Shown here piece after piece: positions 20-16,304 of a stretch of 16,578 nt of DNA. The stretch lies in NCBI GenBank assembly GCA_964244895.1, contig CAXTKV010000116.1, positions 1 to 16,578 of the forward strand, written 5' to 3'. A program made the position numbers and the translations under genes. The stretch's first letter is position 1. Each line of letters opens with the position of its first letter. The stretch comes from an uncultured Deinococcales bacterium (GTDB taxonomy: Bacteria; Deinococcota; Deinococci; Deinococcales; JAAFIG01). Under the pieces are notes generated by a model. The model did not search any database, was not told the DNA's origin, and saw only the letters and a list, made by a program, of their open reading frames with translations.

Positions 20-775
20 TTACTTGGTCGCGTCAAGGCGTTGAAAAACCCAAGGTCGTTCAATTGATCGCATCGGATTTCTCGAGATTCCGGGTGTTTT
101 TGGGTTTTCACGGCCTGAGTAATCGCGCTCTACCGGAAGCCACCACGACCATTCCTGCCCGCCAGAACGCGTCTTGAATTCGTACATCTTTGAAAACAAT
201 GGCCATTTCACCGCAGTGACACGACCGTAAATCAAATCCAGAGGTACTGGCCCGAAAACCCTCGAATCCTCGCTGCCACCCACAGAACGATTATCGCCCA
301 TCACAAAAACCGTGCCTGGTGGAACGATAAAATCGCCCTTTCGAGGTTCTGGTCTGAAATACCATTCGTCGGAGTTCGATAAACTTGATTCACTATCGAA
401 GTTATTAATTGCTTTCCAGTAAGCCACCGTATATGACTCATCTAACGCTTGACCGTTCAGGAAAATTTGCCCTTTGACCATTCGAATTCGATCACCTGCA
501 ATACCTATGATTCGTTTGATGAACCTCACTCCCGGCCTATAGCTTGGCGTACCCTCGGGAACCCACATCAGCACGATGCTACCGCGTAAGTACGTCGCTT
601 CTCGAGAAGTGGCGATACGTTCCCCCGCGAAGAGGTACGGTATACCAGCATTTCCGCGTAGTTGAACGACTCCAAACACATACGGATAAATGAATCCTAT
701 AACTGCCAAAGTAAGTAGGATATAGATGAAAACAAGCACTGGTGCAAGGCCAGAATCGCGTCTCATTCGGGTCAT
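20..775 (-). CDS. Signal peptidase I (S26) paralog, predicted catalytically impaired (box B Ser replaced by Ala)
   Basis: N-terminal TM segment (VLVFIYILLTLAVIGFIY), box D FIKRIIGIAGD, box E MGDNRSVGGSEDSRVFGP. Box B reads RGNAGIP instead of GxSMxP. Start placed at ATG 775 (alternatives 766 or the ORF-track 823). Confidence 0.85.
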   Translation of the reverse strand: MTRMRRDSGLAPVLVFIYILLTLAVIGFIYPYVFGVVQLRGNAGIPYLFAGERIATSREATYLRGSIVLMWVPEGTPSYRPGVRFIKRIIGIAGDRIRMVKGQIFLNGQALDESYTVAYWKAINNFDSESSLSNSDEWYFRPEPRKGDFIVPPGTVFVMGDNRSVGGSEDSRVFGPVPLDLIYGRVTAVKWPLFSKMYEFKTRSGGQEWSWWLPVERDYSGRENPKTPGISRNPMRSIERPWVFQRLDATK

Positions 776-794
776 ATGATTACCAGAATCAATT

Positions 795-1829
795 TCAGGG
801 TGTCTTTTGTGGTTGCTCAGCAAGTTGCTTGTTGAGCTTCACAAATGCTTCTGGACGGCTTAGAACACGCCAACGCATTTTCAACGTTGCACCCGTTGGG
901 TCTTCCAGTAACTTGCCGTTGTAATCACGCTCGCCAGTTAACGGAATATCCCAGGACAGTTTTTGTCCAGTGCTGGCTTTCGCTTGAACAGTTTTCACCG
1001 ATGCAAACGGTGGCCACCATACGAATGTTGCCCGACCCGAAAAATCATCCAGTTTGACGGGGCCGAACACGCGTGAGTCTTCACTGCCGCCTCTACTGCG
1101 GTTGTCACCCATCACAAAATACATGCCTTTTGGCACAGTGAATTCCTTTGCTTTGGTGTCATTCAGACGTTTACTCTCTGCATCCGGTAATTGGCTCCAA
1201 GAGAGGTAAGACCAATCGCTTGAAGATGCCAGGCCGGGTTCAGTATCCCAGTTGTCTATGGCTCTCCAGTAAGAGGTCGTGTGCGTCTCCTCGACTTTGA
1301 TGTCGTTGATGTACAACTGGCCTTTCTCGAGTCTCACCTTGTCGCCAGCTACGGCAACGATGCGTTTGATGAAATATGGCCTGTACTTGACATCTGGGAA
1401 AAAGATGGAAACCACTGGCAACGGCTTAGTGCCCGAGGGCGCGCCGTTCGGTGGCTTCAACACGACCAGATCGCCGCGCTGGAAGCTGCCGATGCCCAGT
1501 TTGTGCAACCAGGTTTCGTACTTGGGCACGAACACGCGTTCGTTGTTGAAGACGTTGGGCTGGTCGCTGTTGCCCTGAATCGCGACCGTGGTGAAGATGA
1601 AGGTCGTGACCACGACCGCGATGATCACGGCCTCACCGATGGGTCTGATCCATTCTTTCCAGAGGTAGTTCAGGATGTTCGATTTTGGTTTGGCGGGTGC
1701 AATCGGGGGCTCGCTCGAGAACACCGTCTCTGACGGGGTTGGCTCCAGGCCGTCGTGGACGGTATTGCCGATATCGGTCGCGTGGTTGGGCTCGAGCGGC
1801 AAGTGGCGCTCGTCAGTCGGTTGGCTCAT
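795..1829 (-). CDS. lepB: Signal peptidase I (S26 family)
   Basis: TM segment AVIIAVVVTTFIF, box B GNSDQP with Ser at 1566-1568, ERVFVPKY, RGDLVV, box D FIKRIVAVAGD (catalytic Lys), box E GDNRSRGGSEDSR. GGAG at 1834-1837 precedes the ATG. Confidence 0.95.
   Translation of the reverse strand: MSQPTDERHLPLEPNHATDIGNTVHDGLEPTPSETVFSSEPPIAPAKPKSNILNYLWKEWIRPIGEAVIIAVVVTTFIFTTVAIQGNSDQPNVFNNERVFVPKYETWLHKLGIGSFQRGDLVVLKPPNGAPSGTKPLPVVSIFFPDVKYRPYFIKRIVAVAGDKVRLEKGQLYINDIKVEETHTTSYWRAIDNWDTEPGLASSSDWSYLSWSQLPDAESKRLNDTKAKEFTVPKGMYFVMGDNRSRGGSEDSRVFGPVKLDDFSGRATFVWWPPFASVKTVQAKASTGQKLSWDIPLTGERDYNGKLLEDPTGATLKMRWRVLSRPEAFVKLNKQLAEQPQKTP
1716..1768. repeat. Degenerate family-A palindromic repeat inside the lepB coding region
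   Basis: cgagaacaccgtc-tct-gacggggtt...tggacggtattgc aligns without gaps to the intergenic copy at 14743-14795. Confidence 0.75.
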
Positions 1830-1916
1830 GTCACTCCGGTCAGGTCACGCATCGCGTGACGAAAAGCGAGAATTCGGAAACCGAGCCAAAAAACGCAGGC
1901 TCGAGCAGCGCTGAAT

Positions 1917-2279
1917 TCAGGCCGCGACCGGGGGCGCTCTGGGTTGTCTGGTGCGCGCAAAAACGGTGGGGACGATTACCAGAATTGCGATGGGAACGAG
2001 AAACTCGAGTACCGGACGCGGCAGCGCCAGGGTGAATTCGGGAATTTCACCGATGATGGTCGGCGTCGCGATCTGGACGCGGCGTTCGGGCAAGATCGCG
2101 CTCAGGGCGGTGTCAGCCGCGTCACAGGCGTTCCCCGTGCAGCTTTGCGCGACCACCACGGGCTGGTTGCGTTCCAACCACTGATGCGCCAGCGCTCCAC
2201 CGGACACGGACAGGATCACGAAGGCGACCAGTCGCGTGAACCATCTGGAGGGTTTGACGTGGCCCATCGCCCCGTTCAT
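1917..2279 (-). CDS. 120-aa leader ORF with signal peptide and C-terminal RAPP motif; putative translation-arrest peptide
   Basis: TATAGT 7 nt upstream of ATG 2279. The sequence has a basic n-region, hydrophobic h-region and ALA site (KPSRWFTRLVAFVILSVSGGALA-HQ), a second hydrophobic stretch (FLVPIAILVIVPTVFA) and ends RQPRAPPVAA*. Confidence 0.8.
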   Translation of the reverse strand: MNGAMGHVKPSRWFTRLVAFVILSVSGGALAHQWLERNQPVVVAQSCTGNACDAADTALSAILPERRVQIATPTIIGEIPEFTLALPRPVLEFLVPIAILVIVPTVFARTRQPRAPPVAA

Positions 2280-2286
2280 CGCGCCA

Positions 2287-2292
2287 ACTATA
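2287..2292 (-). promoter_or_regulatory. -10 box TATAGT of a probable leaderless promoter for the RAPP ORF
   Basis: Minus strand reads TATAGT-tggcgcg-ATG with no SD; same geometry as three other genes in the window. Confidence 0.65.
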
Positions 2293-2427: not shown

Positions 2428-5400
2428 CTACTGCGCCAGATGATCTTCTGGTGTCGCTGCCGCACCGATCTCTTTTTCGGTCAGCGCCAGAAAGCTCGCC
2501 CGCGCGAGCGGATCTTCGATGGCGTCCAGCAAACCCCGCGCGATCTCGAGGGCGCTCTGCCGCGCTTCGAGGGCTTCAGAGGAGCGACCGCAGGCGTCCA
2601 GGGACGCCGCCAGCGCGATCTGTATGCCCATCGTCTCGAGCTTCAGACCGAGCGCCGCACAGATTGAGCGGGCTTCCAGCAAGAGGGTCGCGGCCCGATC
2701 GTGATGGGATTCCAGGCGCGCCAGCGCAGCCAGTGCGCGCAGCGCAGTGATTCTGGATCGCGGTCGATCCTGCACGCTGGCGGCGAAGGCTTCCACGTCC
2801 GCCAGTGCCAGGTCTGAGTGCCCGGCTCGAGCCAGGGCTTCGGCTTCCAGCCAGCGCGGACTGAGCGCGAACCAGCCCGCGTAACCGGGCTCTCGGGCAT
2901 CCAGGGCCTGGCGCGCCAGGATCGCCGCCGCGGCCCAGTCGCCTTCCTGACTGGAAACCGCCGAGAGTTGCGCGTTCAGGAACGTCCTGACCGGCCCGGC
3001 CTGCGCGATCCGCGCGATGTTCGCCTCGCACAGGGCTCGGGCTTCCAGGAACACCGTGCGCGCCATCTCGAACTGCCCGAGGGCCGCGCGAGTGCGTCCT
3101 TGCGCGATCATGGCGTAAATTTCGGCCAGGGCGCTCTGGCGGGCGCGCGCCGTGCGCAGGGAGCGCTCCGCGAAGCCGAGCGCATCCGAGAACGCGCCGC
3201 GCTCCAGCAGGCACAGCGACAGCACGCGCTCCGCGAACCCCTGCCCGGCCAGCCAGCGGATCTCCAGACAGATTTCCAACGCGCCCCGAGCCTCGCGCAC
3301 GCCCAGGTCTGGGTCGCCCAGAAAGAGCGCGCAGTAGGCCATCATCACCAGCGCGTGCGCCTCGGAGACGCGGGTTTTTGAGGCGCGCGCCAGCTCGCGC
3401 GCTTCCTGCGCGTGGTTCCTGGAATCCGACCAGCGACCCAGGTTGAGTTCAATGTTGAAGACCGCCTCGAGCGCCTCGAGCGACCACTGCACCTGCCCGA
3501 GCGACCGCGACTGCTCGAGCGCCAGCGCCGCGTGTTCCAGGGCCGCTCGCAGGTTCCAGCGCTGGTTCTCGAGCCATGCCAGGCTGATGCGCGTCTCGAC
3601 GCCCGCCGCCGGATCGTCCGTTCTGGAAGCCGCCTCCAATGCGCGGTGGTACAAGTCCGCCGCCCTCGAGAGGTTCACCTCGACGTTGGTGGCGTGGTAC
3701 GCCAGCCGGTTGTAAGCCGTGGCCTGCACGCCGGAATCCTGTTGTTCCTCGCCGAAGGCCAGCAGGCGCTCGTAGGCGTGCCTGGAACGTTCGTGTTCGT
3801 TCAGGTAATCGAGCGCGTAGCCCAGGTTGGTGTACAGGCGTTGGCGGTCGGGCGGCGGCAGGCGTTCCAACAAACCCGCGTTGGACAGCAGCGCCGCCTG
3901 CGCGCGCTCGTAATGCTCGACCGCGTCCGACATGGCGTACAAGCGGAACGCCTCGTCGCCCGCCGAAAGGCTGTGCCGCACGATGGCTTCCGGCAGGGCC
4001 GCCAGCGTCGCGTGCCGCGCCAGCCTCGCGGCGGGCACGTTTCCCGAATGCCGCGCCTCGAGCGCCGCCAGCGCGCGCGCGTGCAAGACGACCCTGGCCG
4101 AACGCGGAATACCATCCAGGACGGCTTCCGCCAGCAGGTCGTGGGTGAAACGATCCAGGCGCATGACGCCCGCATCCTCGAGTTCCTCGCTGGCGTCCGC
4201 CAGCATCAACGCGTCCGCCTCGAGCATCTGCGCCGCCAGCGCCAACGAGAAGCCCTCGCCGGTGATGGCCGCCACGCGCGAGAGATCTCGGGCGGATTTT
4301 GAGAGCCGCTCGAGCCGCCGCCCGATCACCTGAGAAACTTTCTCCGATCGCGGCAATCCCTCCAACCGATCCAGGTTCCCGCCCCCCCGCAAGGTTTCCA
4401 GGATGAACAACGGGTTGCCGCCCGTGAAGCGCATCAGGTTCTGCGCCACGGCCTCGAGCCTGTCGGCACCGATCTGTGCGCCGATCTCTGGACTGATCTC
4501 CGGGCTGAGGCGCATCAGGTCGCGCACGCCGTCCACGCTCAAAGGCTCGAGTTCCACGAGCACCGCCCGACCCGCCTCGATCTGCTGTCGCACGCGCCGT
4601 TCGATCTCCGGCGGCAGTTCACCGCGCCGGAATCCCGCCACCACCACCAGCGGCCTGCCGCGCCGTTCCAGGGCGTGAACCGCTCCGTACGCGCCCATCT
4701 CGAAACTCTGCGAATCCCAGAGATGCAGATCGTCCAGCACGATGGTCGCGTGCTGCGCGAAGACTTTCAGACCCCAGGCCACGAACGCGTCGAACAAACG
4801 CAGGCGTTCATCGTTGGAGGTGATCGGCGGCGTCGGGTCGGCTTCGAGTTCCGGCACCAGCCGGGACAGTTCGCGCTGCGCCCAGTTGGGCACCTCCACC
4901 CGCCCGTCCGGTTGCGCCGCGTTGACCGTGCGGATGGCGCGCGCCACCAGCGCGAACGGCACGCCCGCGTCGGTCGGACGCCCGCGCAGCACGTCCCAGC
5001 GTCCGCGCTCCTGCGCGAAGGCCTGAATCAAGCGCGTCTTGCCGACGCCCGCCTCGCCGCTGACGAAAATCAACTTGCCCGCCCGCGCCGCCTGCCGCAT
5101 CCGCTCGAGTTCCGGTTCGCGCGCCACCAGCGGCGGTTCGTCCGGTCGGAGAGCCTCGCGCGGCGCGGGAATCGGCGCCTCTCGAGCCTCGGGAATCTGT
5201 GGTGCAGCCGATCCCGCCGCACCCGCCTCGAGCGCGGCGACCAGCGCGCTCGTCTGCGGCGAGGGTTCCACCCCTAACTCGCGGCGCAAGACCGTCTGGC
5301 AGGCGCGGTACGCCTCCAGTGCCGCACCCCGATTGCCCAATCTCAACTGCAAGCCGATCACCTGACGGTGCGCGACCTCGTTCAACGGTTCGAGCCGCAA

Positions 5401-5943
5401 GCGCCGCCGCGCGATCTCGAGCGCCCGCTCGGGCTCATCGCCGGATTCGTACAGTTCCAGCAAGCGTTCCAGCACCGCGTCGAAACGCTGCCGCAACAAC
5501 TCGCGCTGCGTCGCCAGCCAGTCCTCGAACTCCGGCGCGTCCGGCAGCGCGAAGGATTCCAGCAACTCCCCACGGTGCGCCCGAACGACCCCCTCGAGCT
5601 GCGCTGGGCTCATGCCCGAAACCCGTTCCAGCGCGCGCACGTCGATCCGCACGGTGTCGTCCCGCAAACCGATCGCGTGCCGTTCGATCAACACATGCGC
5701 CTCGCCGTCCAGCGCGTCCCGCAGGTACGTCAGGATGTTGCGCAGGTTGCCTCGCGCCTGGGTTTCCTCCAGTTCCGGCCAGAGCAAGGCCGTCAAGCGC
5801 GCGCGCGGCTGCATCCCGCCCTCCAGGGCCAGGAAAGCCAGCACCGCCAGCATCTTGCGCGTCCGGAAGTTGACCGCCCGCCCGTCCAGACGCACCTCGG
5901 GCGGGCCGAGGAACGACAGCTCGAGCGCGCCACCTTCGTTCAC
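2428..5943 (-). CDS. SARP-family transcriptional regulator: winged HTH + BTAD + AAA/STAND ATPase + TPR repeats
   Basis: N-terminal LSFLGPPEVRLDG...RKMLAVLAFLAL...LLWPE; BTAD LEPLNEVAHRQVI...ELGVEPSPQT; Walker A GEAGVGKT; Walker B LDDLH; GGNPLFILE; Ala-rich helical TPR-like C-terminal half. GTG start with upstream GAGGT. Confidence 0.93.
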   Translation of the reverse strand: MNEGGALELSFLGPPEVRLDGRAVNFRTRKMLAVLAFLALEGGMQPRARLTALLWPELEETQARGNLRNILTYLRDALDGEAHVLIERHAIGLRDDTVRIDVRALERVSGMSPAQLEGVVRAHRGELLESFALPDAPEFEDWLATQRELLRQRFDAVLERLLELYESGDEPERALEIARRRLRLEPLNEVAHRQVIGLQLRLGNRGAALEAYRACQTVLRRELGVEPSPQTSALVAALEAGAAGSAAPQIPEAREAPIPAPREALRPDEPPLVAREPELERMRQAARAGKLIFVSGEAGVGKTRLIQAFAQERGRWDVLRGRPTDAGVPFALVARAIRTVNAAQPDGRVEVPNWAQRELSRLVPELEADPTPPITSNDERLRLFDAFVAWGLKVFAQHATIVLDDLHLWDSQSFEMGAYGAVHALERRGRPLVVVAGFRRGELPPEIERRVRQQIEAGRAVLVELEPLSVDGVRDLMRLSPEISPEIGAQIGADRLEAVAQNLMRFTGGNPLFILETLRGGGNLDRLEGLPRSEKVSQVIGRRLERLSKSARDLSRVAAITGEGFSLALAAQMLEADALMLADASEELEDAGVMRLDRFTHDLLAEAVLDGIPRSARVVLHARALAALEARHSGNVPAARLARHATLAALPEAIVRHSLSAGDEAFRLYAMSDAVEHYERAQAALLSNAGLLERLPPPDRQRLYTNLGYALDYLNEHERSRHAYERLLAFGEEQQDSGVQATAYNRLAYHATNVEVNLSRAADLYHRALEAASRTDDPAAGVETRISLAWLENQRWNLRAALEHAALALEQSRSLGQVQWSLEALEAVFNIELNLGRWSDSRNHAQEARELARASKTRVSEAHALVMMAYCALFLGDPDLGVREARGALEICLEIRWLAGQGFAERVLSLCLLERGAFSDALGFAERSLRTARARQSALAEIYAMIAQGRTRAALGQFEMARTVFLEARALCEANIARIAQAGPVRTFLNAQLSAVSSQEGDWAAAAILARQALDAREPGYAGWFALSPRWLEAEALARAGHSDLALADVEAFAASVQDRPRSRITALRALAALARLESHHDRAATLLLEARSICAALGLKLETMGIQIALAASLDACGRSSEALEARQSALEIARGLLDAIEDPLARASFLALTEKEIGAAATPEDHLAQ

Positions 5944-6109: not shown

Positions 6110-7561
6110 TCAGCTTCCGCCCCAACCCTTGACCCGAGGGTACAGGTCGCAAAAACGCGCGTAGGCGTCCTGAGCGGCCCCCAGGTTCACGCCAGGTTCC
6201 GCCGCGGGTACGGGCTTCGGCGCGAGCGACAGCGTGCCCTGAGCGCTCGAGAACGCGCCCGACGCGATGCCACCCAGCAAGGCCGCCCCCCGAGCCGAGG
6301 CGGACGCGACCTCCGAGGCCAGGAGTGGACGCTCGAGCGCATCCGCCAACAACTGCCGCCAGCGCGGATCGAGCGTGCCACCGCCCGCCAGACGCAACGC
6401 CGGAGCATCCGCGCCCGTCGCTAACAGCGCGTTCCAGCCGTCCTTCAACGAAAACGCCAGCCCCTCGAGCGCCGAGCGCATCAGGTGCGCGCGCGTGTGG
6501 TGCAAGCCCAACCCCGCCCACACGCCCCGCGCGTGCGGATCGAGGTGCGGCGTGCGCTCGCCCGTCAGGTACGGCAGGAACGTCAAACCCTCCGCGCCCA
6601 TCGGCACGCTGAAGGCTTCCTGGTACGCTTCCGTCCACGACAAACCCAGCACGCCCCGCACCCACTCGAGCGCCACCCCGGCGTTCTGCATGGCGGCCAT
6701 CGCGTACCACCGATCCGGCGCGACCGCCCGGTACAGGTGCGTGCGCGGGTTCACCTCCAGATGGGCTCGATCTCGAGGCGCGACGATCTGCGCCCCGGAA
6801 CCCACCGTCAGTTGCACCGTCCCTTCCTCGAGCAAACCCGAGCCCAGCATCGCGCACGGCGTGTCGCCGCCGCCCGCCGCGACCGGAACGCCCTCGGGCA
6901 ACCCCAGAAAAGACGCGGCCTGCCTGGAGAGCGTTCCCGCCACCGTCCCAGACGGCACCATCGGCGCGAGCAGGTCGGATCGAAGCCCCAGCCTGTCCAC
7001 CACGCCCCACGCCCAACCGTCCGCTTCCAGATCGTACAGCAGCGTGCCCGACGCGTCCGACGGTTCCACCGCGACCTGATCCGTCAGCTTCAGCCGCAGC
7101 CAATCCTTGGGCTGCAACGCGTATGTCGCCGCGTCGTACACGTCGGGTTCGTGGCGTTTGAGCCACAGCAAACTTGGCCCCGCCATGCCGACCGCCAGCG
7201 GATTGCCCAGTTTGCTCAACAGTTCCGGCCCGAGATTTCTGTACGCCTCGAGTTCACCGTGCGATCGTGCATCCGCCCACAGGATCGCATCCCGCAACGC
7301 TCGACCATCCGCACCGCACAGCACGACCCCGTGCATCTGACCGGACAGGCCAATGGCCGTGATTTCATGGGCTCGAGTCCCCACGGCCTGCCGTGTCGCA
7401 TCCCGCGCGGCGTTCCACCAATCGTTCGGATTCGTCTCTGCCCAACCCAGATGCGGCGCATTGACGGGATAAACGCTTGAAGCTTCACCGACGACCGCGC
7501 CGTCAAGCTCGAGCAGGAGCGCCTTGATTGAACCAGTTCCCAGATCGAGCCCGAGCAGCAC
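6110..7561 (-). CDS. xylB: Xylulokinase / FGGY-family carbohydrate kinase
   Basis: LGLDLGTGSIKA, GLSGQMHG, AILWADARS, PKDWLRLKLT, SDASGTLLYD, GGGDTPCA, FLPYLTGERTP, LAGGG motifs. Exact substrate not certain. Confidence 0.88.
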   Translation of the reverse strand: MLLGLDLGTGSIKALLLELDGAVVGEASSVYPVNAPHLGWAETNPNDWWNAARDATRQAVGTRAHEITAIGLSGQMHGVVLCGADGRALRDAILWADARSHGELEAYRNLGPELLSKLGNPLAVGMAGPSLLWLKRHEPDVYDAATYALQPKDWLRLKLTDQVAVEPSDASGTLLYDLEADGWAWGVVDRLGLRSDLLAPMVPSGTVAGTLSRQAASFLGLPEGVPVAAGGGDTPCAMLGSGLLEEGTVQLTVGSGAQIVAPRDRAHLEVNPRTHLYRAVAPDRWYAMAAMQNAGVALEWVRGVLGLSWTEAYQEAFSVPMGAEGLTFLPYLTGERTPHLDPHARGVWAGLGLHHTRAHLMRSALEGLAFSLKDGWNALLATGADAPALRLAGGGTLDPRWRQLLADALERPLLASEVASASARGAALLGGIASGAFSSAQGTLSLAPKPVPAAEPGVNLGAAQDAYARFCDLYPRVKGWGGS

Positions 7562-7568
7562 GGTCTAC

Positions 7569-7621
7569 CTCGAGAACACCGTCCAGCACGCGAGATTAAA
7601 TATGCGTGCTGGACGGTGTTC
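7569..7621. repeat. Family-A palindromic repeat (perfect 18-bp stem)
   Basis: GAACACCGTCCAGCACGC (7574-7591) / GCGTGCTGGACGGTGTTC (7604-7621), 12-nt loop, preceded by CTCGAG. Confidence 0.92.
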
Positions 7622-7623
7622 CT

Positions 7624-7761
7624 GCCCTCGTCCTCCCCTGCGAAGGAGGGGAGGTGGCTCGAGCATCAGCCTTTCCGATGCGAGAGACGGAGGGGTCTCG
7701 TACACCGACTCCTCCGTGATGGGCCAAGACCGGGCTGATGCAAACAGGGCAGGACGAGGGC
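7624..7761. repeat. Family-B nested-palindrome element (REPIN/MITE-like), copy 1
   Basis: 17-bp terminal inverted repeat with 1 mismatch (7624-7640 / 7745-7761), inner gcatcagc/gctgatgc stem, inner acggaggggtc/gactcctccgt stem, and a cctcccct/aggggagg hairpin. Confidence 0.8.
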
Positions 7762-7782
7762 GTGCGTCTCGAGACATCGCGT

Positions 7783-8613
7783 TCACGCCTTGCCACTCGC
7801 GCCCATCAACTGCAATCTTCTTCGGGCCTCATCGCGTACCTTCTCTTGGGCGAGCTTCAGGACGGTGTAGTGCCCGTAATCGCCGCCCATCGCCAGCGCC
7901 TCGCGGGAACCGTCGCACCAGGCCACGGACAGCGCGTGACCGATGTTGATCTTGACCACGCCCAACTTGACGGCCTCGCGCACGTCGTCGGGGTGAATAC
8001 CGCTGCCGCCGTGCAGCACGAGCGGCGCGTTCGAGCGTTTTTGGATATCCGCCAGCAATTCCAGGTTCAGCCTGGAACTGGCGTGGTGTTCGCTGCCCAC
8101 ACTCACCGCGATCATGTCCGCGCCCGCCTCGAGCATCATCGGGATTTCTTCGGGCTTGGTGAATTCCAACTCGTGCCCCTGGCCTTCGGAGCCGCCACCG
8201 AACGAACCCAGCTCGCCCTCGAGCGCCGCGCCCAACGCGTGTGCGGCCCGAGCGATCAGCGCGGTTTCCGCCAGCGCGTCCTGTAGGGTTCGCCCGTAAC
8301 CGTCGTACATCACGCTGGAATACCCGGCCTGCAAGCATTTCAGGTCGTATTCGAAGCCCGGCCCGTGATCGAGGTGCAAGAACACCGGCACGTCTGTTTG
8401 CGCCGCCAGCGACTTGACGATGCCCGCCATCTCGGGCAGCCCGGCGTGCGCCAGATCGCCGGGGTAGGTCTGCAGGATCACGGGGGCGCGTTCCAGCGTG
8501 GCGGCCTCGATGCAACCGCGCGCCATCTCGAGGTTGCAGACGTTGAAGGCGGGCATGGCGAAGCGCTCCGCGTGCGCGCGCCGCAGGAATTCGCGTGGGT
8601 TCTGTACCAGCAT
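7783..8613 (-). CDS. Class II fructose/tagatose-bisphosphate aldolase family protein
   Basis: PAFNVCNLE, FLHLDHG, GYSSVMYDG, EGELG, PLVLHGGSG, VVKINIG motifs. Confidence 0.92.
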   Translation of the reverse strand: MLVQNPREFLRRAHAERFAMPAFNVCNLEMARGCIEAATLERAPVILQTYPGDLAHAGLPEMAGIVKSLAAQTDVPVFLHLDHGPGFEYDLKCLQAGYSSVMYDGYGRTLQDALAETALIARAAHALGAALEGELGSFGGGSEGQGHELEFTKPEEIPMMLEAGADMIAVSVGSEHHASSRLNLELLADIQKRSNAPLVLHGGSGIHPDDVREAVKLGVVKINIGHALSVAWCDGSREALAMGGDYGHYTVLKLAQEKVRDEARRRLQLMGASGKA

Positions 8614-8619
8614 GGCTTC

Positions 8620-8625
8620 ACCCTA
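8620..8625 (-). promoter_or_regulatory. Probable leaderless -10 box (TAGGGT) for the aldolase
   Basis: TAGGGT-gaagcc-ATG on the minus strand. Confidence 0.5.
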
Positions 8626-8719
8626 CCAAGTCGGCTGATCTGGCCGCGCGTTTCTCGAGTGCGGCGGCGTTAAGATCGAGCCCTGCGACGTTCACAACAA
8701 CCATCTTCCCGGAGGAATC

Positions 8720-9580
8720 ATGTCGGAAGCCAACTACAAATCTGAACTGGTCGGCGTGTTCGGCCATCCGGTCGCGGAAAACCCGACCATCGTGATGCAG
8801 GAAGCGGCCTTCAAGGCGTTGGGATTGAACTGGCGTTACCTGAACATCGAGGTGCTGCCCGAAGATTTACGGGACGCCGTGATGGGGTTGCGCGCCATGA
8901 ATTTTGCCGGGATCAACTGCACGATTCCCCACAAGACGCGCGTGCTGGAATTCCTGGACGAGATCGCGCCCGACGCGAAACTGATGGGTGCGGTCAACAC
9001 CGTGCGGCGCGATGGAAAGCGTTTGATCGGCGAGAACACCGACGGCAAGGGCTTCATTCAAAGTTTGCGCGAGGACGCGAAGCTCGAGCCGATGGGTAAA
9101 CGCGTCGTGATCCTCGGGGCGGGCGGTGCGGCGCGCGCCATGACGGTCGAACTGGCCCTGAACGGTGCGGCGCACGTCACGGTCGTCAACCGCGATGCGG
9201 TGAAAGGCCGAGCGCTGGTCAAGTTGCTCCTCGAGAACACGCCCGTCCGGGCTGAGTTCGTCGAATGGAACACCGCTTACGCCGTGCCCGACGACGCGGA
9301 CGTGCTCGCCAACGCGACCTCCATCGGCTTGTACCCGAACGTGACCGACAAACCCGACCTGATCTACGACTCGATCCGCCCGAGCATGATCGTCTGCGAC
9401 GTGATCCCCAACCCGCCGCGCACGCCCTTTTTGAAGGAAGCCGAAGCCCGAGGTGCGCGCACCCTGGACGGCCTGGGCATGCTGGTCTACCAGGGCGCGA
9501 TCGGCTTCAAGATGTGGACCGGGCAGGACGCTAGCGTGCCCGTCATGCGCGCCGCCCTCGAGCGCGAGTTCGGGCTGTGA
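8720..9580 (+). CDS. aroE: Shikimate dehydrogenase (AroE/YdiB family)
   Basis: GVFGHPV, GINCTIPHK, GAVNTV, ENTDGKGF, ILGAGGAARA, NATSIG, DGLGMLVYQG; GGAGG SD at 8711-8715. The usual SxS substrate motif reads AENPT, so it may be a paralog with another substrate. Confidence 0.85.
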   Translation: MSEANYKSELVGVFGHPVAENPTIVMQEAAFKALGLNWRYLNIEVLPEDLRDAVMGLRAMNFAGINCTIPHKTRVLEFLDEIAPDAKLMGAVNTVRRDGKRLIGENTDGKGFIQSLREDAKLEPMGKRVVILGAGGAARAMTVELALNGAAHVTVVNRDAVKGRALVKLLLENTPVRAEFVEWNTAYAVPDDADVLANATSIGLYPNVTDKPDLIYDSIRPSMIVCDVIPNPPRTPFLKEAEARGARTLDGLGMLVYQGAIGFKMWTGQDASVPVMRAALEREFGL

Positions 9581-9595
9581 TGCTCGAGATCCGAG

Positions 9596-9655
9596 GAACA
9601 CAGTCCTGAACACAAATTCTTGAATCTCGAGAACGTCGTGCTGAACGGTGTTCTT
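9596..9655. repeat. Family-A repeat (three-half form) after the aroE stop
   Basis: gaacacagtcctgaacacaaattcttgaatctcgagaacgtcgtgctgaacggtgttctt; inverted match to 11037-11096. Confidence 0.85.
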
Positions 9656-9694
9656 AAAAACCCAGGAACGTATTCTCCGCACCCGACGACTTAT

Positions 9695-9717
9695 TCCTGA
9701 CTTCTGACTCTCCTGAC
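9695..9717 (-). repeat. Heptamer tract (TCCTGAC/TTCTGAC)
   Basis: tcctgac-ttctgac-tc-tcctgac just upstream of the 9735 SD. Confidence 0.55.
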
Positions 9718-9734
9718 CACCCCCGGAGGAACGC

Positions 9735-11000
9735 ATGGCGAAGAAAGCCCCGAAATCCCCACCGAGCCTCGAGACGCACCTCGATCAGGCGCTGAACGCC
9801 GGGGAAGGCATCCTGCACCTCGCGCCGACCTGGGTTCCCAGATCGTTCATGATGCCCGGCAGGCGCATGGGTCTGGCGGAACAGGACTTGTACGTGCTGG
9901 GCGCGAACCGGGGCGGCATCGACGAACGCTGGTTCGCCAGCACCACGCACGCGGAAAACGGCCCCGGAACGCCGGCGGACGAGGGCCTGAGTTACGTGGT
10001 CGCACCGGACGGCAACCGTTTCCTGCTGCTCGAGGCGATCGCCGCCAGGGGCGCGGCCCTGATCGGGCGCGCGATGTTCAAGAAGTGGGGCCGCTGGCCG
10101 CTGTACAGCAAGTATTTCGACAACATGGGCCCGATCCCGCACCATTTGCACCAGTTGAACAAGCACGCCAAACGCGTCGGCACGGAACACAAGCCGGAAG
10201 CGTATTACTTTCCGGCGCAGGTCAACGCGGTCACCAACAACTTCCCGTACACGTTTTTTGGTCTGACGCCGGACACGAAAAAGCAGGATGTGTTCGATTG
10301 CCTGGAACGCTGGAACCGGGGCGACAACGGCATTCTGGATCTTTCGACCGCCTCGCGGCTGAAACCGGGCACGGGATGGTTGATTCCGCCGGGCGTGCTG
10401 CACGCGCCCGGATCGTTGTGCACCTACGAAGTGCAGTGGGGTTCGGACGTGTTCGCCATGTACCAGAGCATGGTCGAAGGCCGCGCCGTCGGCTGGGATT
10501 TGCTGACCAAAGACGTACCCGCCGACAAGAAAAACGACCTGGATTACATCGTTTCCATGCTGGATTGGGACGCCAACATCAACCCCAACTTCAAGCGCGA
10601 CCATTACCTCGAGCCAATCGAGATCGGCAACACGGCCCGCGACGGTTACGTGGACAAATGGGTGATTTACGGCAAGATTCTGAATGAGGATCTGTTCAGC
10701 GCCAGAGAACTGACCGTCCTGCCCGGCATCGAAGTCACGATCTCCGACCCCGGCGCGAGCGGCGCGACCGTGATCCAGGGTCAGGGGGAGATCGGGCCTC
10801 ACGACGCGTCCACCGCGACGTTCGTGCGTTACGGCGAACTGACCCAGGACGAGTTTTTCATCACCGAAGAGCGCGCCCGCGCCGGCTGGACGGTGCACAA
10901 CACCGGGCACGAGCCGCTCGTGATCCTGCGCTACTTCGGCCCCGGCGTGAACGCGTCCATGCCCAACGCTGGCGATCACCGCAAGCGTTCTGGTCGATAG
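9735..11000 (+). CDS. Uncharacterised cupin-fold protein resembling class I phosphomannose isomerase
   Basis: GGAGG SD. Motifs IDERWFAS, KYFDNMGPIPHHLHQ, KPEAYYF, IPPGVLHAPG, YEVQWGSD parallel the ManA-type ExW, KxLD..QVHP, KPE, PAGTxHA, EIQQxSD series. Confidence 0.75.
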   Translation: MAKKAPKSPPSLETHLDQALNAGEGILHLAPTWVPRSFMMPGRRMGLAEQDLYVLGANRGGIDERWFASTTHAENGPGTPADEGLSYVVAPDGNRFLLLEAIAARGAALIGRAMFKKWGRWPLYSKYFDNMGPIPHHLHQLNKHAKRVGTEHKPEAYYFPAQVNAVTNNFPYTFFGLTPDTKKQDVFDCLERWNRGDNGILDLSTASRLKPGTGWLIPPGVLHAPGSLCTYEVQWGSDVFAMYQSMVEGRAVGWDLLTKDVPADKKNDLDYIVSMLDWDANINPNFKRDHYLEPIEIGNTARDGYVDKWVIYGKILNEDLFSARELTVLPGIEVTISDPGASGATVIQGQGEIGPHDASTATFVRYGELTQDEFFITEERARAGWTVHNTGHEPLVILRYFGPGVNASMPNAGDHRKRSGR

Positions 11001-12495: not shown

Positions 12496-12558
12496 GAACG
12501 CCGTCTGGGACGGCGTTCCTGGATACTCAAAAGATGCGTCTGGGACGGTGTTCTCGAG
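12494..12558. repeat. Family-A repeat overlapping the stop codon of the upstream gene
   Basis: Perfect 12-bp stem aggaacgccgtc-tgg-gacggcgttcct (12494-12520) plus a third half gcgtctgggacggtgttctcgag. Confidence 0.9.
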
Positions 12559-12728
12559 GGTGCGCCTTTGAAATGATCGAGACGCGGTGGTTCTGCACAC
12601 TGACTCCTCCATCGTCGGCCCAAACCGTGCTGATGCCGCTTCCCCAAAACGCAGCGGAGGCCTGTCAACACCGAGAAACACGTTCCAGACGCGAACCATC
12701 CCGCCCGGTGGCGCGCCTGACGAACCGC

Positions 12729-12734
12729 TACAAT
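12729..12734 (+). promoter_or_regulatory. -10 box TACAAT of a leaderless recF promoter
   Basis: TACAAT-gcacca-GTG(12741). Confidence 0.7.
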
Positions 12735-12740
12735 GCACCA

Positions 12741-13796
12741 GTGATCCTGCGCGCCGTGCAACTGCTCAATTACCGCAACCTGGATTCGGGCAGGGTCAGC
12801 TTCTCTGCGGGTCTGACGGGTGTGGTCGGCGGCAACGGGCAGGGCAAGACGAACATCCAGGAAGCCATCTTTCTGGCCTTGACGGGCGTGCTGGACGTGT
12901 CCAGAATCGAGACCGCCATCAAGCTCGGCGAAAAAGAGGCGTTCATCGGCGTGGAACTCGAGCGAGAGGACGGCCTGACGAAGCTCGAGGTCGGGCTGGC
13001 TCCGGGCAAGAAACTGGCGAAGGTGGATGGCAACCGCGTGAGGGCCGCAGAACTCGCGCGGCACGGGGCTGCGGTCTGGATCAGGCCGGAGGATGCGGAA
13101 CTGGTTCACGGTTCACCGTCCAGACGCCGGGCTTTTCTGGACGGCCTCGTCTCGAGGATGTCGCCACGGTACGCGCAGGCGTTGGTGTTGTACGAGCGCA
13201 CGCTGGCGCAACGGAACGCGGTGCTGAAACACGCGTCCAGCGCCGAACCGGACGGGCTGGGCGTCTGGGATGTCAGGCTGGCGGAACTGGGTCAGGAGAT
13301 CATGAACCTGCGCCGCCGCGCGCTGAACCGCCTGGCGGGGCTGGCGCGGGACGCGCACGCGGGGCTGGCCGCCAACGGCAAGAACCTCGAGTTGACCCTG
13401 ACGGAAACCGCGCCGGTGGACGGTTTCCTCGAGACGCTGCAATCCAAACGCCGCGAGGAATTGAGCCGAGGCACGACCGCCATCGGCCCGCACCGGGACG
13501 ACATCAGCATCCGACTGGCGGATCTGGCTGCCGACGAGTACGCCTCGCGCGGCGAGGCCCGCACGATCGCGCTGGCTTTACGCAAGGCCGAATTCGATCT
13601 GTTCACCGAAAAATTCGGCGAACCGCCCGTGCTATTGGTGGACGATTTCACCGCCGAACTCGACCGCGACCGCCGCGCGCACCTGCTCGAACTGGTGGCT
13701 CGCGCACCGCAGGCCATCGTGACGGGCACGGAAGCGCCACCGGAAGCCAGAAGAATCCTCGAAATGCACGCCGGACGCGTTGCGGTTCCGGCGTGA
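12741..13796 (+). CDS. recF: DNA replication and repair protein RecF
   Basis: NYRNL, Walker A GGNGQGKTNIQEAI, GSPSRRRAFLD, QRNAVLK, GPHRDD, ASRGEARTIALALR, PVLLVDDFTAELD. Start set at GTG 12741. Confidence 0.97.
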   Translation: MILRAVQLLNYRNLDSGRVSFSAGLTGVVGGNGQGKTNIQEAIFLALTGVLDVSRIETAIKLGEKEAFIGVELEREDGLTKLEVGLAPGKKLAKVDGNRVRAAELARHGAAVWIRPEDAELVHGSPSRRRAFLDGLVSRMSPRYAQALVLYERTLAQRNAVLKHASSAEPDGLGVWDVRLAELGQEIMNLRRRALNRLAGLARDAHAGLAANGKNLELTLTETAPVDGFLETLQSKRREELSRGTTAIGPHRDDISIRLADLAADEYASRGEARTIALALRKAEFDLFTEKFGEPPVLLVDDFTAELDRDRRAHLLELVARAPQAIVTGTEAPPEARRILEMHAGRVAVPA

Positions 13797-13821
13797 AGGG
13801 TTGCGGCGTGAAAGAACCATC

Positions 13822-14742
13822 GTGACCCACCGATCCCGTCGCGGCGGCAAGGCCACCCGGCGCGTCTCGGACGTGCTCGAGACGGTCTTCTCGCGCAACA
13901 AGCTCGCGCGCGGCGCGCGCAAGGCCAGACCGCTGGTGGCCTGGGCGGAAGTCGTCGGGCCGCAACTGGCCCGCACCACCCGCGCTGTGCGCGTCCAGGA
14001 CGGCGTGATGGTCGTCGAAACCCAGGACGCGGTGGCCGCCAACTACCTGACGATGCAGCGCACGCGCTACCTGGATTTGCTGCGCACCGCGCTCGGATCG
14101 GAAGCCCCAGAAGATTTGCGCTTTCAGATGGGTGTCTTTGAAGCGCCCAAGCCGCCGCGCATCGAACGCCAACCGCCGCCGCTTTCGAGGGCCGAACGCG
14201 AACACGCCGAATCCCTCTCGCAGGACGCGTCCGAAGAACTCCGCCCGTTTGTGCAGGCCGCCGCCGAAGCGTTGATCCGTGTGCGCCACGAACGCGAACG
14301 CCGGGGCTTCAAACCCTGCGAGATCTGCGCCGCGCTGACCGACCGTCCCGGCCCCTGCACCTCGTGCCGCACGCTGATGAGTACGCCCGCCACGACGCAC
14401 CTGCGCTCGAGATTGATCCGCGATCCCAACCTGGCGATTCAGAACCCCGAAGATTTCGGCCTCAGCCCTGAAGGGCTCGAGTGCGCCCGATACCTGGCGA
14501 TTCAGTATTTAGAGGGGCAATTCGAGACGCTCTTGTTGCAGGTCATCAGGCCGCCCAAGACTCGCGCCCGACGCCCCAACCAGCCCGAACTCGAGGTCTC
14601 GGAGCACCGCATGATGCTCGAATCGTTGGCGCAGAAGTACCTGGCGCTCAAGCTCAAAAAGCCGCTCGAGGAGGTCGAACGCCGCGACCGTTCCGGTTTG
14701 CCCGAACGCGTCAAGAGCGTGCTCGAGATCAAGCCGGTTTAA
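13822..14742 (+). CDS. DciA/DUF721-domain protein with CxxC..CxxC Zn-ribbon and helical C-terminal extension
   Basis: AWAEVVGPQLARTTRAVRVQDGVMVVETQDAVAANYL matches DUF721; CEIC...CTSC; directly follows recF, a known gene pairing. Confidence 0.85.
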   Translation: MTHRSRRGGKATRRVSDVLETVFSRNKLARGARKARPLVAWAEVVGPQLARTTRAVRVQDGVMVVETQDAVAANYLTMQRTRYLDLLRTALGSEAPEDLRFQMGVFEAPKPPRIERQPPPLSRAEREHAESLSQDASEELRPFVQAAAEALIRVRHERERRGFKPCEICAALTDRPGPCTSCRTLMSTPATTHLRSRLIRDPNLAIQNPEDFGLSPEGLECARYLAIQYLEGQFETLLLQVIRPPKTRARRPNQPELEVSEHRMMLESLAQKYLALKLKKPLEEVERRDRSGLPERVKSVLEIKPV

Positions 14743-14795
14743 CGAGAACACCGTCCCAGACGGTGTTCTCGAGACTGCGCGTTGGACGGTGTTTC
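14743..14795. repeat. Family-A repeat immediately after the DUF721 stop
   Basis: Perfect 13-bp stem cgagaacaccgtc-cca-gacggtgttctcg (14743-14771) plus a third half gcgttggacggtgttt. Confidence 0.92.
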
Positions 14796-14862
14796 TGCGT
14801 TTAGAGCGCAACAAATCGTGTTCTCACCGAAATCTTCTCGTGAACGTGCTCGATGCGTCTCG

Positions 14863-14994
14863 AGGGGCGGGCACGGCCTGCCCGCAGGACGGTCTTTTGT
14901 GGGGGCAACCCTCGTGGTTGCCCTCGCCCTAAACGTCTACAGGTCTACTCCCCAGACCGAGAAATGTCCCGTAGGGGCGCGATTCATCGCGCCC
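14863..14994 (+). repeat. Three GTAG-family REP-like hairpins
   Basis: aggggcgggcacggcctgccc (14863-14883), gtgggggcaaccctcgtggttgccc (14899-14923), GTAGGGGCGCGATTCATCGCGCCC (14971-14994). Confidence 0.7.
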
Positions 14995-15059
14995 GCCGAC
15001 TCAGGCTGAACCGTCCCAGAGGCGATTGCGGTCTCGGAGTCGCTCGAGAGGCCGCCACG

Positions 15060-15089
15060 AAAAACGGCTCGAGTTTTCGCTCGAGCCGT
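15060..15089 (-). terminator. Probable intrinsic terminator of the pilT-like gene
   Basis: Minus strand ACGGCTCGAG-cgaaaa-CTCGAGCCGT followed by TTTT, 16 nt past the stop. Confidence 0.7.
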
Positions 15090-15105
15090 CGATACCAACC
15101 TGAAC

Positions 15106-16191
15106 TTAAACCCGCAGTTCCTCGAGCGCTCCGCGCGTCAGCATCAGCTTGAACTCGTGCGGGCTGGTCGCGGCCACGGTGGCTTCCTCGAGGGTGATCA
15201 GCCCGTCGCGGTACAGCTCGACCAGGTGCTGATCGAAGGTTTTCATGCCGCGAATGTTGTCTTCCATCATCGCGTCCTTGATCAGCGGGGTTTTGGTTTC
15301 GTCCTTGATGTAATCGCGAATCAGTGGTGTGTTGACCAGCGTCTCGAGCGCCAGCGCCCGCCCGATGCCGTCCGCGCGGGGCAGCAGGCGCTGCGAGAGA
15401 ATCCCGATCAGGCTTTCCGCGAACAGAATGCGGATCTGGTCGCGCTCGTGCGGCGGAAAGAAATCGATGATGCGGTTGACGGTGCGCACGGCGTCCTGGG
15501 TGTGCAGCGTGGACAGCACCAGGTGCCCGGTTTGCGCTGCGGTGATGGCGGCCTCGACGGTTTCCTTGTCGCGCATCTCGCCGATCATGATCACGTCGGG
15601 ATCCTGGCGCATGGCGTACTTGAGGGCCGTGCGGAAATCGCCGGTGTCGCTGCCGATCTCGCGCTGAACGACGATGCTGCGCTGGTTCTTGTGCAGAATT
15701 TCGATCGGGTCTTCGACGGTGATGATGTTGTACGCGAAGGCGCGGTTGATGTGGTCGATCATGCTGGCCAGCGTGGTCGATTTGCCGGAACCGGTCGGGC
15801 CGGTCGCCAGGATCAGTCCGCGTTCCTTGTTGGTGAAATCCTGGAGCAGTTCGGTCGGTAGCCCGAGTGCCTCGAAGCTCGGGATGGCGTCGCTGATGAC
15901 GCGCATGACGATGCCCACGCTGCCGCGCTGCCGGAAGACGTTGCAGCGGAAGCGGGCCACGCCGGGCACGCTGTAGGCGAAGTCGAGTTCGTTGCGGTAC
16001 TCGAACTCTTCCCACTGTTCGGGGTTCAGCAAGGTCTTGGCGATGGTTTTGGTCTCTTCGGGTGCCAGGTTGCGGTTGGCGAACGGCACGAGCTTGCCGT
16101 CCACGCGTCCGGTCGGCGGCGACCCGACTTGCAGGTGAACGTCCGAGGCGCGCCTCGAGACCATGGTTTTCAGAAGTTCGACGATGGTCAC
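15106..16191 (-). CDS. pilT: PilT/PilU-family type IV pilus retraction ATPase
   Basis: ASDVHL, RFRCNVFRQRG, Walker A GPTGSGKSTT, TVEDPIE, QREIG, RQDPDVIMIGEMRD, TGHLVLSTLHT, GMKTFDQHL. GTG start at 16191 after AGGGGG. The AIRNLIRE motif reads LIRDYIKD, so PilT2/PilU-like. Confidence 0.9.
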   Translation of the reverse strand: MTIVELLKTMVSRRASDVHLQVGSPPTGRVDGKLVPFANRNLAPEETKTIAKTLLNPEQWEEFEYRNELDFAYSVPGVARFRCNVFRQRGSVGIVMRVISDAIPSFEALGLPTELLQDFTNKERGLILATGPTGSGKSTTLASMIDHINRAFAYNIITVEDPIEILHKNQRSIVVQREIGSDTGDFRTALKYAMRQDPDVIMIGEMRDKETVEAAITAAQTGHLVLSTLHTQDAVRTVNRIIDFFPPHERDQIRILFAESLIGILSQRLLPRADGIGRALALETLVNTPLIRDYIKDETKTPLIKDAMMEDNIRGMKTFDQHLVELYRDGLITLEEATVAATSPHEFKLMLTRGALEELRV

Positions 16192-16304
16192 GGTTGATCC
16201 CCCTGCGAGCCTACGAAATGCGTACACAATGAGAGCGATTCGCGCCGTGCCCGACGGCATCCGGCGGCGTTCGTGGTTGCATCACCCACGCTGATCACCT
16301 CAAA

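Follow-up and report, generated by a model that had tools for sequence, protein, structure and literature searches.

A 120-aa open reading frame (ORF) encoded ahead of an atypical signal peptidase I gene in an uncultured Deinococcales bacterium is likely, judging from comparison with its relatives, a RAPP-type leader with a new target. The pairing of leader and peptidase is, on comparative grounds, real, conserved and specific. We consider it probable that the leader is a monitoring substrate, which would stall its own ribosome at a C-terminal Ala-Pro-Pro (APP) tail and turn on the Ser-Asp peptidase during the stall. Monitoring substrates have been described for targeting, translocation and insertion (SecA, SecDF, YidC).

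The leader ORF and its anatomy

The candidate ribosome-arrest leader is located at 1917..2279 on the reverse strand (read 2279-1917) of the window, by which we mean the whole analysed stretch of 16,578 nucleotides, and was delimited from sequence and homologue comparison. It terminates in QPRAPPVAA*. The start ATG has no 5' leader, with the -10-like box TATAGT (2287..2292, reverse strand) 7 nt ahead of it, and 87 nt separate the stop codon from the peptidase ATG on the same strand. The original prediction of a leaderless 120-aa ORF with a signal-like N-terminus and RAPP at 1929-1940, placed 87 nt before the peptidase, was thus borne out by the sequence in every one of these points.

Family searches gave no significant Pfam or NCBIfam match. 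MerC was rejected, since its match (E 0.049) was limited to the hydrophobic N-terminus, and the ESM Atlas returned only unnamed hypothetical clusters at 0.95, which are a lead at most. Full-length homologues with 72-79% identity kept PRAPP in nine of nine cases. A profile search of 1.84 billion representatives resulted in 17 matches, 16 of which were examined and found family-like; the remaining one is 778 aa long. One leader-family member (P0014) is labelled by NCBI as a cyanobacterial MAG (Pleurocapsa sp.) and probably stems from a mis-binned contig or a transfer. When the small ORFs of the source genome were scanned for N-terminal hydrophobicity, a -10 box and a terminal x[AG]PP, 5 matched; 2 of these have RAPP, namely the leader ORF and an ORF spanning an N gap. 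No comparable leader was seen by eye at the secA and yidC loci of the source genome.

The predicted Sec signal peptide comprises residues 1-31 (2187..2279, reverse strand), with putative cleavage between GGALA and HQ as judged by motif and hydrophobicity. Among 20 aligned family members S26 and A31 are invariant and G27, G28, A29 and L30 nearly so; the last signal Ala of the Thermaceae leaders aligns as well. All 27 in-frame leaders have, by motif, an N-terminal localisation signal with a hydrophobic core of 2.1-2.8 and an Ala-ending site. Within the family the invariant residues are the start Met, two at the signal end, and Ala-Pro-Pro, and no others. The leaders share only 18-34% identity with each other (about 20% typically, and about 20% between Thermaceae and the family), and leaders of other genera are 19-31% identical to that of the source genome. 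Structure prediction gave no confident fold for the middle part (pTM 0.22), which is weak evidence owing to a shallow alignment.

In contrast to this divergence in sequence, length is tightly kept. From the predicted cleavage site to the last Pro, the spacer measures 80-86 aa in 27 of 27 in-frame leaders (mean 83, SD 2.1), while the distance from the start to the motif varies more, from 105 to 117. The spacer exceeds the 30 aa between signal and motif that RAPP-type monitoring substrates require.

Two further elements of the original prediction are present at this locus and lineage-specific or exceptional beyond it. The Cys pair CTGNAC (Cys47-x4-Cys52, 2124..2141, reverse strand) has counterparts of the form Cx3-5C in a total of 11 out of 27 leaders, namely those of 7 Thermaceae, the source genus and one sister genus, always 59-64 residues ahead of the motif (11/11). 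With 16 leaders devoid of the pair, a metal-sensing Cys pair was rejected as a general feature. The second hydrophobic stretch (residues 90-108, 1956..2012, reverse strand) would sit in the ribosome tunnel at arrest, as estimated from its distance to Pro116. Its 19-residue hydrophobic peak reaches 2.5 in the source leader versus 0.5-1.9 in 26 others; a second transmembrane helix, strong in the source leader only, was likewise rejected as a general feature.

Upstream of the leader, the window holds a gene for a BTAD/AAA/TPR transcriptional activator of 1171 aa (2428-5943, reverse strand), which we place outside the leader-peptidase unit because upstream neighbours vary between genera. Farther away, genes named from their translations alone are sugar-kinase, class II aldolase, shikimate dehydrogenase-like and cupin-like genes (6110-11000) as well as recF, DUF721-like and pilT-like genes (12534-16260). 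As an uncounted impression, the hexamer CTCGAG is strikingly common in the window and in the family loci, intergenic hairpins included.

Linkage to an atypical signal peptidase

The downstream gene (795..1829, reverse strand, read 1829-795) encodes a signal peptidase I of 344 aa (Peptidase_S26/TIGR02227), supported by PF10502 (E 9e-40) and TIGR02227 (126 bits versus a cut-off of 47). Like type I signal peptidase LepB, it has the Ser/Lys dyad with Lys155, an intact GDNR box and a DSR box; it differs from LepB by Asp instead of Met after the catalytic Ser, so that it is of an atypical Ser88-Asp89 type. S88, D89 and K155 are invariant in 12 aligned orthologues. A solved SPase I reads GSSM at the same position, and the housekeeping genes of Deinococcus, Thermus and Meiothermus carry G-x-S-M-x-P, in contrast to G-x-S-D-x-P in the leader-linked peptidase. 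In E. coli the corresponding residue is Met91, which the accessible text of PMC2259416 assigns to the S1 and S2 subsites. An AlphaFold model of the peptidase (pLDDT 49) was too poor for use.

A pattern search detected the Ser-Asp motif in 25 out of 364 Deinococcota genomes: 17 of the uncultured Deinococcales family and 8 out of 68 Thermaceae, versus 0 out of 125 Deinococcaceae and no genome of three further families, with family names inferred from titled loci. In all five Thermaceae checked, the Ser-Asp gene is a second copy and a canonical Ser-Met copy without leader is located elsewhere. The target named in the original prediction, lepB, therefore holds as a signal peptidase I gene but is distinct from the usual lepB of this phylum. 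In the uncultured Deinococcales family, 9 genomes were seen to carry a Ser-Met paralogue that is more distant; none was found in the source genome (91% complete), whose only two PF10502 matches are 1829-795 and 775-20. When 64 proteins were placed in a tree, the Ser-Asp genes together with four divergent derivatives formed one branch (97/87). After removal of long branches and masking of the Asp/Met column, the Ser-Asp genes again grouped together, but only tentatively so (SH-aLRT 80).

The second S26 gene of the source genome lies in tandem behind the first (20..775, reverse strand; start ambiguous between ATG 775 and TTG 823). It is 37% identical to the first, aligns GNAGIP to GNSDQP and thus has Ala for the nucleophile Ser, while the Lys and GDNR boxes are intact. 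It forms a long branch inside the Ser-Asp clade, is absent downstream of the peptidase in three of three relatives with long flanks, and is probably an inactive duplicate by these sequence features. Other fast-evolving S26 copies from the Ser-Asp clade are L174, L177 and L180 (genomes G004, G012 and G007), with the motifs GSSDAP, GSGNLP and GISGMP. Two of them are located directly behind gyrB, L177 apparently is without the nucleophile Ser, and none of the three has a leader. In two genera of the family, g3 and g5, the peptidases (L004-L006, L013-L017) have an insertion with two conserved Cys (DDCSY ... ESPC); here the leader is without a Cys pair and the peptidase itself has one.

To avoid selecting for the leader, the family survey started from the peptidase side. 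The catalytic motif of the orthologue was found in 17 out of 19 genomes of the uncultured Deinococcales family, each time with the upstream ORF (17/17; one locus is cut by the contig end with its tail still visible). In an eighteenth genome leader and peptidase start lie at the contig end, and in the nineteenth (79% complete) neither leader nor peptidase was found. The leader profile A1 matched 18 of these 19 genomes and gave no credible match in 345 genomes outside the family, where two weak matches fell within long ORFs. Thermaceae leaders were missed by this profile and recovered from the peptidase side: all 8 Ser-Asp copies are preceded by a signal-bearing ORF ending in PRAPP, one of them frameshifted. 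Of 19 records with the same peptidase motif, 14 are titled as a 'Deinococcales bacterium' MAG, 4 as Meiothermus or Thermaceae and 1 as Deinococcota bacterium.

By a single rule, which demands a hydrophobic N-region followed after 70-125 residues by x[AG]PP, with this motif near a stop and the ORF upstream of the peptidase, leaders were recognized at 25 out of 28 Ser-Asp loci and at 0 out of 130 other signal peptidase loci; 13 loci were unparsed, 4 duplicates were dropped, and related genomes are not independent. The misses were L016 (contig end, tail RAFDALAPP), L174, the divergent Ser-Asp paralogue behind gyrB without leader, and L191 (G179), in which a frameshift in the leader region (about 1050-1414) separates the signal part from PRAPP with both ends kept, either by assembly error or in a decayed copy. 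One MAG with 6% contamination (G005) contains two distinct copies of leader plus peptidase start (L003 and L050), both behind an HTH regulator gene, which may reflect duplication or a strain mix. The comparative test proposed with the original prediction thus had a positive outcome: an upstream ORF that combines an N-terminal signal, a divergent middle and a C-terminal APP is conserved alongside one peptidase type in two families.

The tail motif and the intergenic RNA

The RAPP motif of the source leader (R114-P117) is encoded at 1929..1940 on the reverse strand. The expected stall would have the codon of Pro116 (1934-1932) in the P site and that of Pro117 (1931-1929) in the A site, a register taken from ApdA/ApdP as described in the accessible text of PMC10951233. 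Conservation of RAPP in orthologous ORFs, on which the original prediction depended, is complete for Ala-Pro-Pro (28/28 measured loci) and partial for Arg, which is retained in 17 loci and replaced in 11 by Leu (8), Thr (2) or Gln (1). The three APP positions use 4, 3 and 4 different codons across the loci, including all four Ala codons. Since APP is retained despite synonymous codon change, selection acts on the peptide.

In known RAPP arrest peptides Arg is required. In the lineage comprising g3 and g5, however, PRAPP is swapped for FDA[L/Q/T]APP, and this tail was found at 12 out of 12 g3, g5 and related metagenome loci. The non-Arg tails belong to a single supported branch of the peptidase tree, which unites g3 and g5, and the motif therefore probably changed once. 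FDAx-APP did not occur in 3,061 other ORFs of the source genome and, from its conservation, is a probable new motif of the arrest type that is free of Arg. In the same crude set of 3,061 long ORFs, RAPP was present 12 times versus 24 expected (O/E 0.50), with only 2 ORFs having it within the last 30 residues. RGPP likewise was rare (O/E 0.13), and LAPP, QAPP and TAPP showed no depletion in this crude gene set. Most RAPP-like sequences in ordinary proteins of E. coli and B. subtilis cause no efficient arrest according to the accessible text of PMC10987492.

TATAGT is likely the leaderless promoter of leader plus peptidase, as predicted from its sequence and position. A strict -10-like hexamer 5-10 nt before an in-frame start precedes 22 out of 28 leaders; the strict pattern missed the source locus and 5 Thermaceae loci. 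Our scan of the intergenic region at the source locus gave no sigma-70 promoter or terminator. In three g5 loci, a -10-like hexamer is found 14 nt ahead of the peptidase ATG and may be a promoter of its own. Canonical peptidases have a -10 box in 21 out of 66 cases versus 3 out of 28 for Ser-Asp peptidases, a comparison that depends on crude start picking.

The peptidase ATG is preceded by GGAG or GAGG in the measured loci. At the source locus, minimum-energy and centroid structures agree on a 5' arm, CCGGUC (1926..1931), covering the Pro117-Val118 codons, which is predicted to pair with the ribosome-binding region (1834..1841). There the 3' arm GACCGG (1841-1836) overlaps the Shine-Dalgarno sequence GGAG (1837-1834). 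This helix, like all these elements on the reverse strand, would close two inner hairpins, one of them just upstream of the ribosome-binding site (1844..1860). Hairpins resembling the latter were seen by eye in g2 and g3 loci.

Expected pairs at the source locus amounted to 5.1 versus 1.0 in synonymous recodings and 0.6 in shuffles, with 1 in 30 of either control set as high. On average over genera, pairing between the stall footprint and the ribosome-binding region exceeded that of recoded controls in the RAPP-bearing genera g1 (5.1 vs 1.0), g2 (8.0 vs 4.6) and g4 (3.9 vs 1.9, with a long helix), based on 27 loci with one long locus left out. It was weak in g3 and g5 and almost absent in five of the 27 loci. 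The overall folding z-score of the source region is -0.8, a simple duplex test placed the source locus within controls, and the pairing results vary with window size. Blocking the stall footprint cut the cost of opening the site by at least 2 kcal/mol in 6 out of 28 loci (L186 being measured at an off-frame motif) and by 1.2 here, and raised it in some. No consensus RNA structure across genera was obtained from 11 loci. An RNA switch is plausible for the source locus and putative for the family.

Mechanism, alternatives and relation to known arrest systems

In the proposed mechanism, a single leaderless mRNA would span leader and peptidase, because the -10 box is conserved and the peptidase has its own Shine-Dalgarno sequence. 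Translation of the leader would be arrested with Pro116 in the P site, by analogy with ApdA/ApdP, while its signal peptide is engaged by Sec and the spacer of 80-86 residues may serve as a ruler. The ribosome tunnel holds about 35-40 residues and the translocon is spanned by 20-25, and therefore the 83-residue spacer would place the cleavage site immediately beyond the membrane during arrest, presumably together with about 20 residues. Normal export and processing would then pull the chain and relieve the stall. If export or processing lags, the parked ribosome would keep the helix at the ribosome-binding site open and more peptidase would be made; this helix is predicted in the source locus and some relatives, not in all.

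A more specific version, which we regard as tentative and on balance doubtful, is a signal peptidase sensor. Here the stall would end only after the leader's own signal is cut, providing feedback on a dedicated peptidase with a variant active site; the ruler would set the cleavage site at the peptidase, and FDAx-APP would act as the Arg-free arrest motif. Such a true peptidase sensor is possible because arrest of VemP reportedly is cancelled after signal sequence cleavage. The spacer fits a peptidase sensor and a general Sec sensor alike, since the end of the hydrophobic core is fixed to the cleavage site.

Stalling could also act through another route. It is unlikely, to our assessment, that the leader controls the peptidase in the manner of CruR, via Rho-dependent termination or a ligand or redox signal sensed by the Cys pair, instead of by export and unmasking of the ribosome-binding site. 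The lack of the RNA switch at many loci would agree with this, as would an excess of C over G near the stall site, seen in most loci with RAPP (+20 points at the source locus), and the constant distance of the Cys pair from the motif in all 11 carriers. CruR combines CXXC, RAPP and Rho with a release independent of the signal peptide (accessible text of PMC9426467). On the other hand, the C excess stems in part from the Pro codons and is absent in g5, the Cys pair is missing in 16 out of 27 leaders and spaced Cx3-5C instead of CXXC, none of 16 leaders matched DUF2946 at E<=1, and the target is an enzyme of the export pathway rather than a metal gene.

Two alternatives dispense with present-day stalling at all or some loci. 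The ORF may encode a small protein that is exported and serves the atypical peptidase as a partner or dedicated substrate, co-transcribed for that reason, with APP having its role in the mature protein and no control by stalling, an explanation that is likewise unlikely in our view. The strict linkage to a single peptidase type whose pocket residue is altered, the unusually well conserved signal end in each family and the loss of Arg in one clade would be in accordance with it. A mature part conserved to only about 20%, with fixed length and no confident fold, conservation peaks at the signal and the last residues only, and the avoidance of RAPP elsewhere in the source genome speak against it. 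Very improbable, finally, is a once-regulatory leader now decaying or bypassed in g3 and g5, where the peptidase would have its own promoter. Loss of Arg and weak RNA pairing in these genera, the -10-like hexamer that precedes the peptidase at 3 loci of g5 and the frameshifted Thermaceae copy point in that direction; however, the g3/g5 tail is a new and strongly conserved motif, the g3/g5 spacer still measures 80-84, and the source locus retains RAPP.

The monitoring-substrate reading, which we prefer, closely resembles the ApdA/ApdP/RQH systems as described in the accessible parts of PMC7897499, PMC10987492 and PMC10951233. These share a small unannotated upstream ORF with an N-terminal signal, a variable spacer of more than 30 aa and a C-terminal RAPP a few codons before the stop, and precede a protein-export gene that often is a second copy (cf. 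secDF2 under ApdA/ApdP). QAPP, found at one leader locus here, is among the RQH motifs tested. The main text of the EMBO J paper (PMC12992588) names neither LAPP nor TAPP, and LAPP is likewise missing from that of PMC10987492. Unlike these systems, our leader is leaderless, targets signal peptidase I rather than secA, secDF or yidC, has FDA[L/T/Q]APP in one clade, and is alike at the motif as far as the comparison reaches. Its narrow spacer also differs from the mostly wide-ranging spacers of Sec-linked arrest peptides (PMC10987492, accessible text). Measured against the four search criteria of Fujiwara 2024 (PMC10987492, accessible text), the leader departs only in its target gene. As this target is Peptidase_S26/TIGR02227, the leader is outside the named RAPP families and at best works like them.

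VemP-secDF2 of Vibrio (accessible text of PMC11470409) likewise has a cleavable signal peptide on the arrested chain, and the reported cancellation of its arrest after signal sequence cleavage is a precedent for the stall release step. VemP differs in its arrest sequence and its longer spacer (median 133), and its target is SecDF instead of the peptidase by which it is cut. CruR/DUF2946 (PMC9426467, accessible text) resembles our family in its signal peptide and in a Cys pair at fixed distance from RAPP, found in 11 out of 27 leaders here. It has CXXC 45 residues before RAPP, in contrast to Cx3-5C at 59-64 residues and no DUF2946 match in 16 leaders, and the pair is dispensable across our leader family. 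Like CruR and the RAPP/RGPP upstream ORFs of Fujiwara 2025 (PMC12992588, accessible text), the leader has a target outside sec/yidC.

No report of an arrest peptide before a signal peptidase gene was found in a search beyond which most of the subscription literature lies. The main text of PMC7897499 mentions neither lepB nor Deinococcota (a signal peptidase is mentioned once in an unrelated context), and the same applies to the accessible text of PMC10987492, PMC12992588 and the LudP preprint (10.64898/2026.10.26.761930). Signal peptidase is absent from the 30 top RAPP downstream classes and from the accessible supplement text of PMC12992588, whose Appendix may list it among further gene groups. 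Since RAPP leaders precede many kinds of genes according to the accessible text of that paper, a leader before a signal peptidase is less surprising.

A cultured carrier exists in the strain titled Meiothermus granaticius NBRC 107808 (L053), whose leader is recorded only as a hypothetical protein (WP_119355878.1), and therefore the proposal is directly testable. For the last step of export, the removal of the signal peptide, we found no monitoring substrate. If the leader works as proposed, feedback logic would reach signal peptidase I, which is both essential and a target of antibiotics, and the leader would provide a natural reporter of peptidase activity. It would also offer a probable new Arg-less arrest motif and an unusual Ser-Asp peptidase for characterization.
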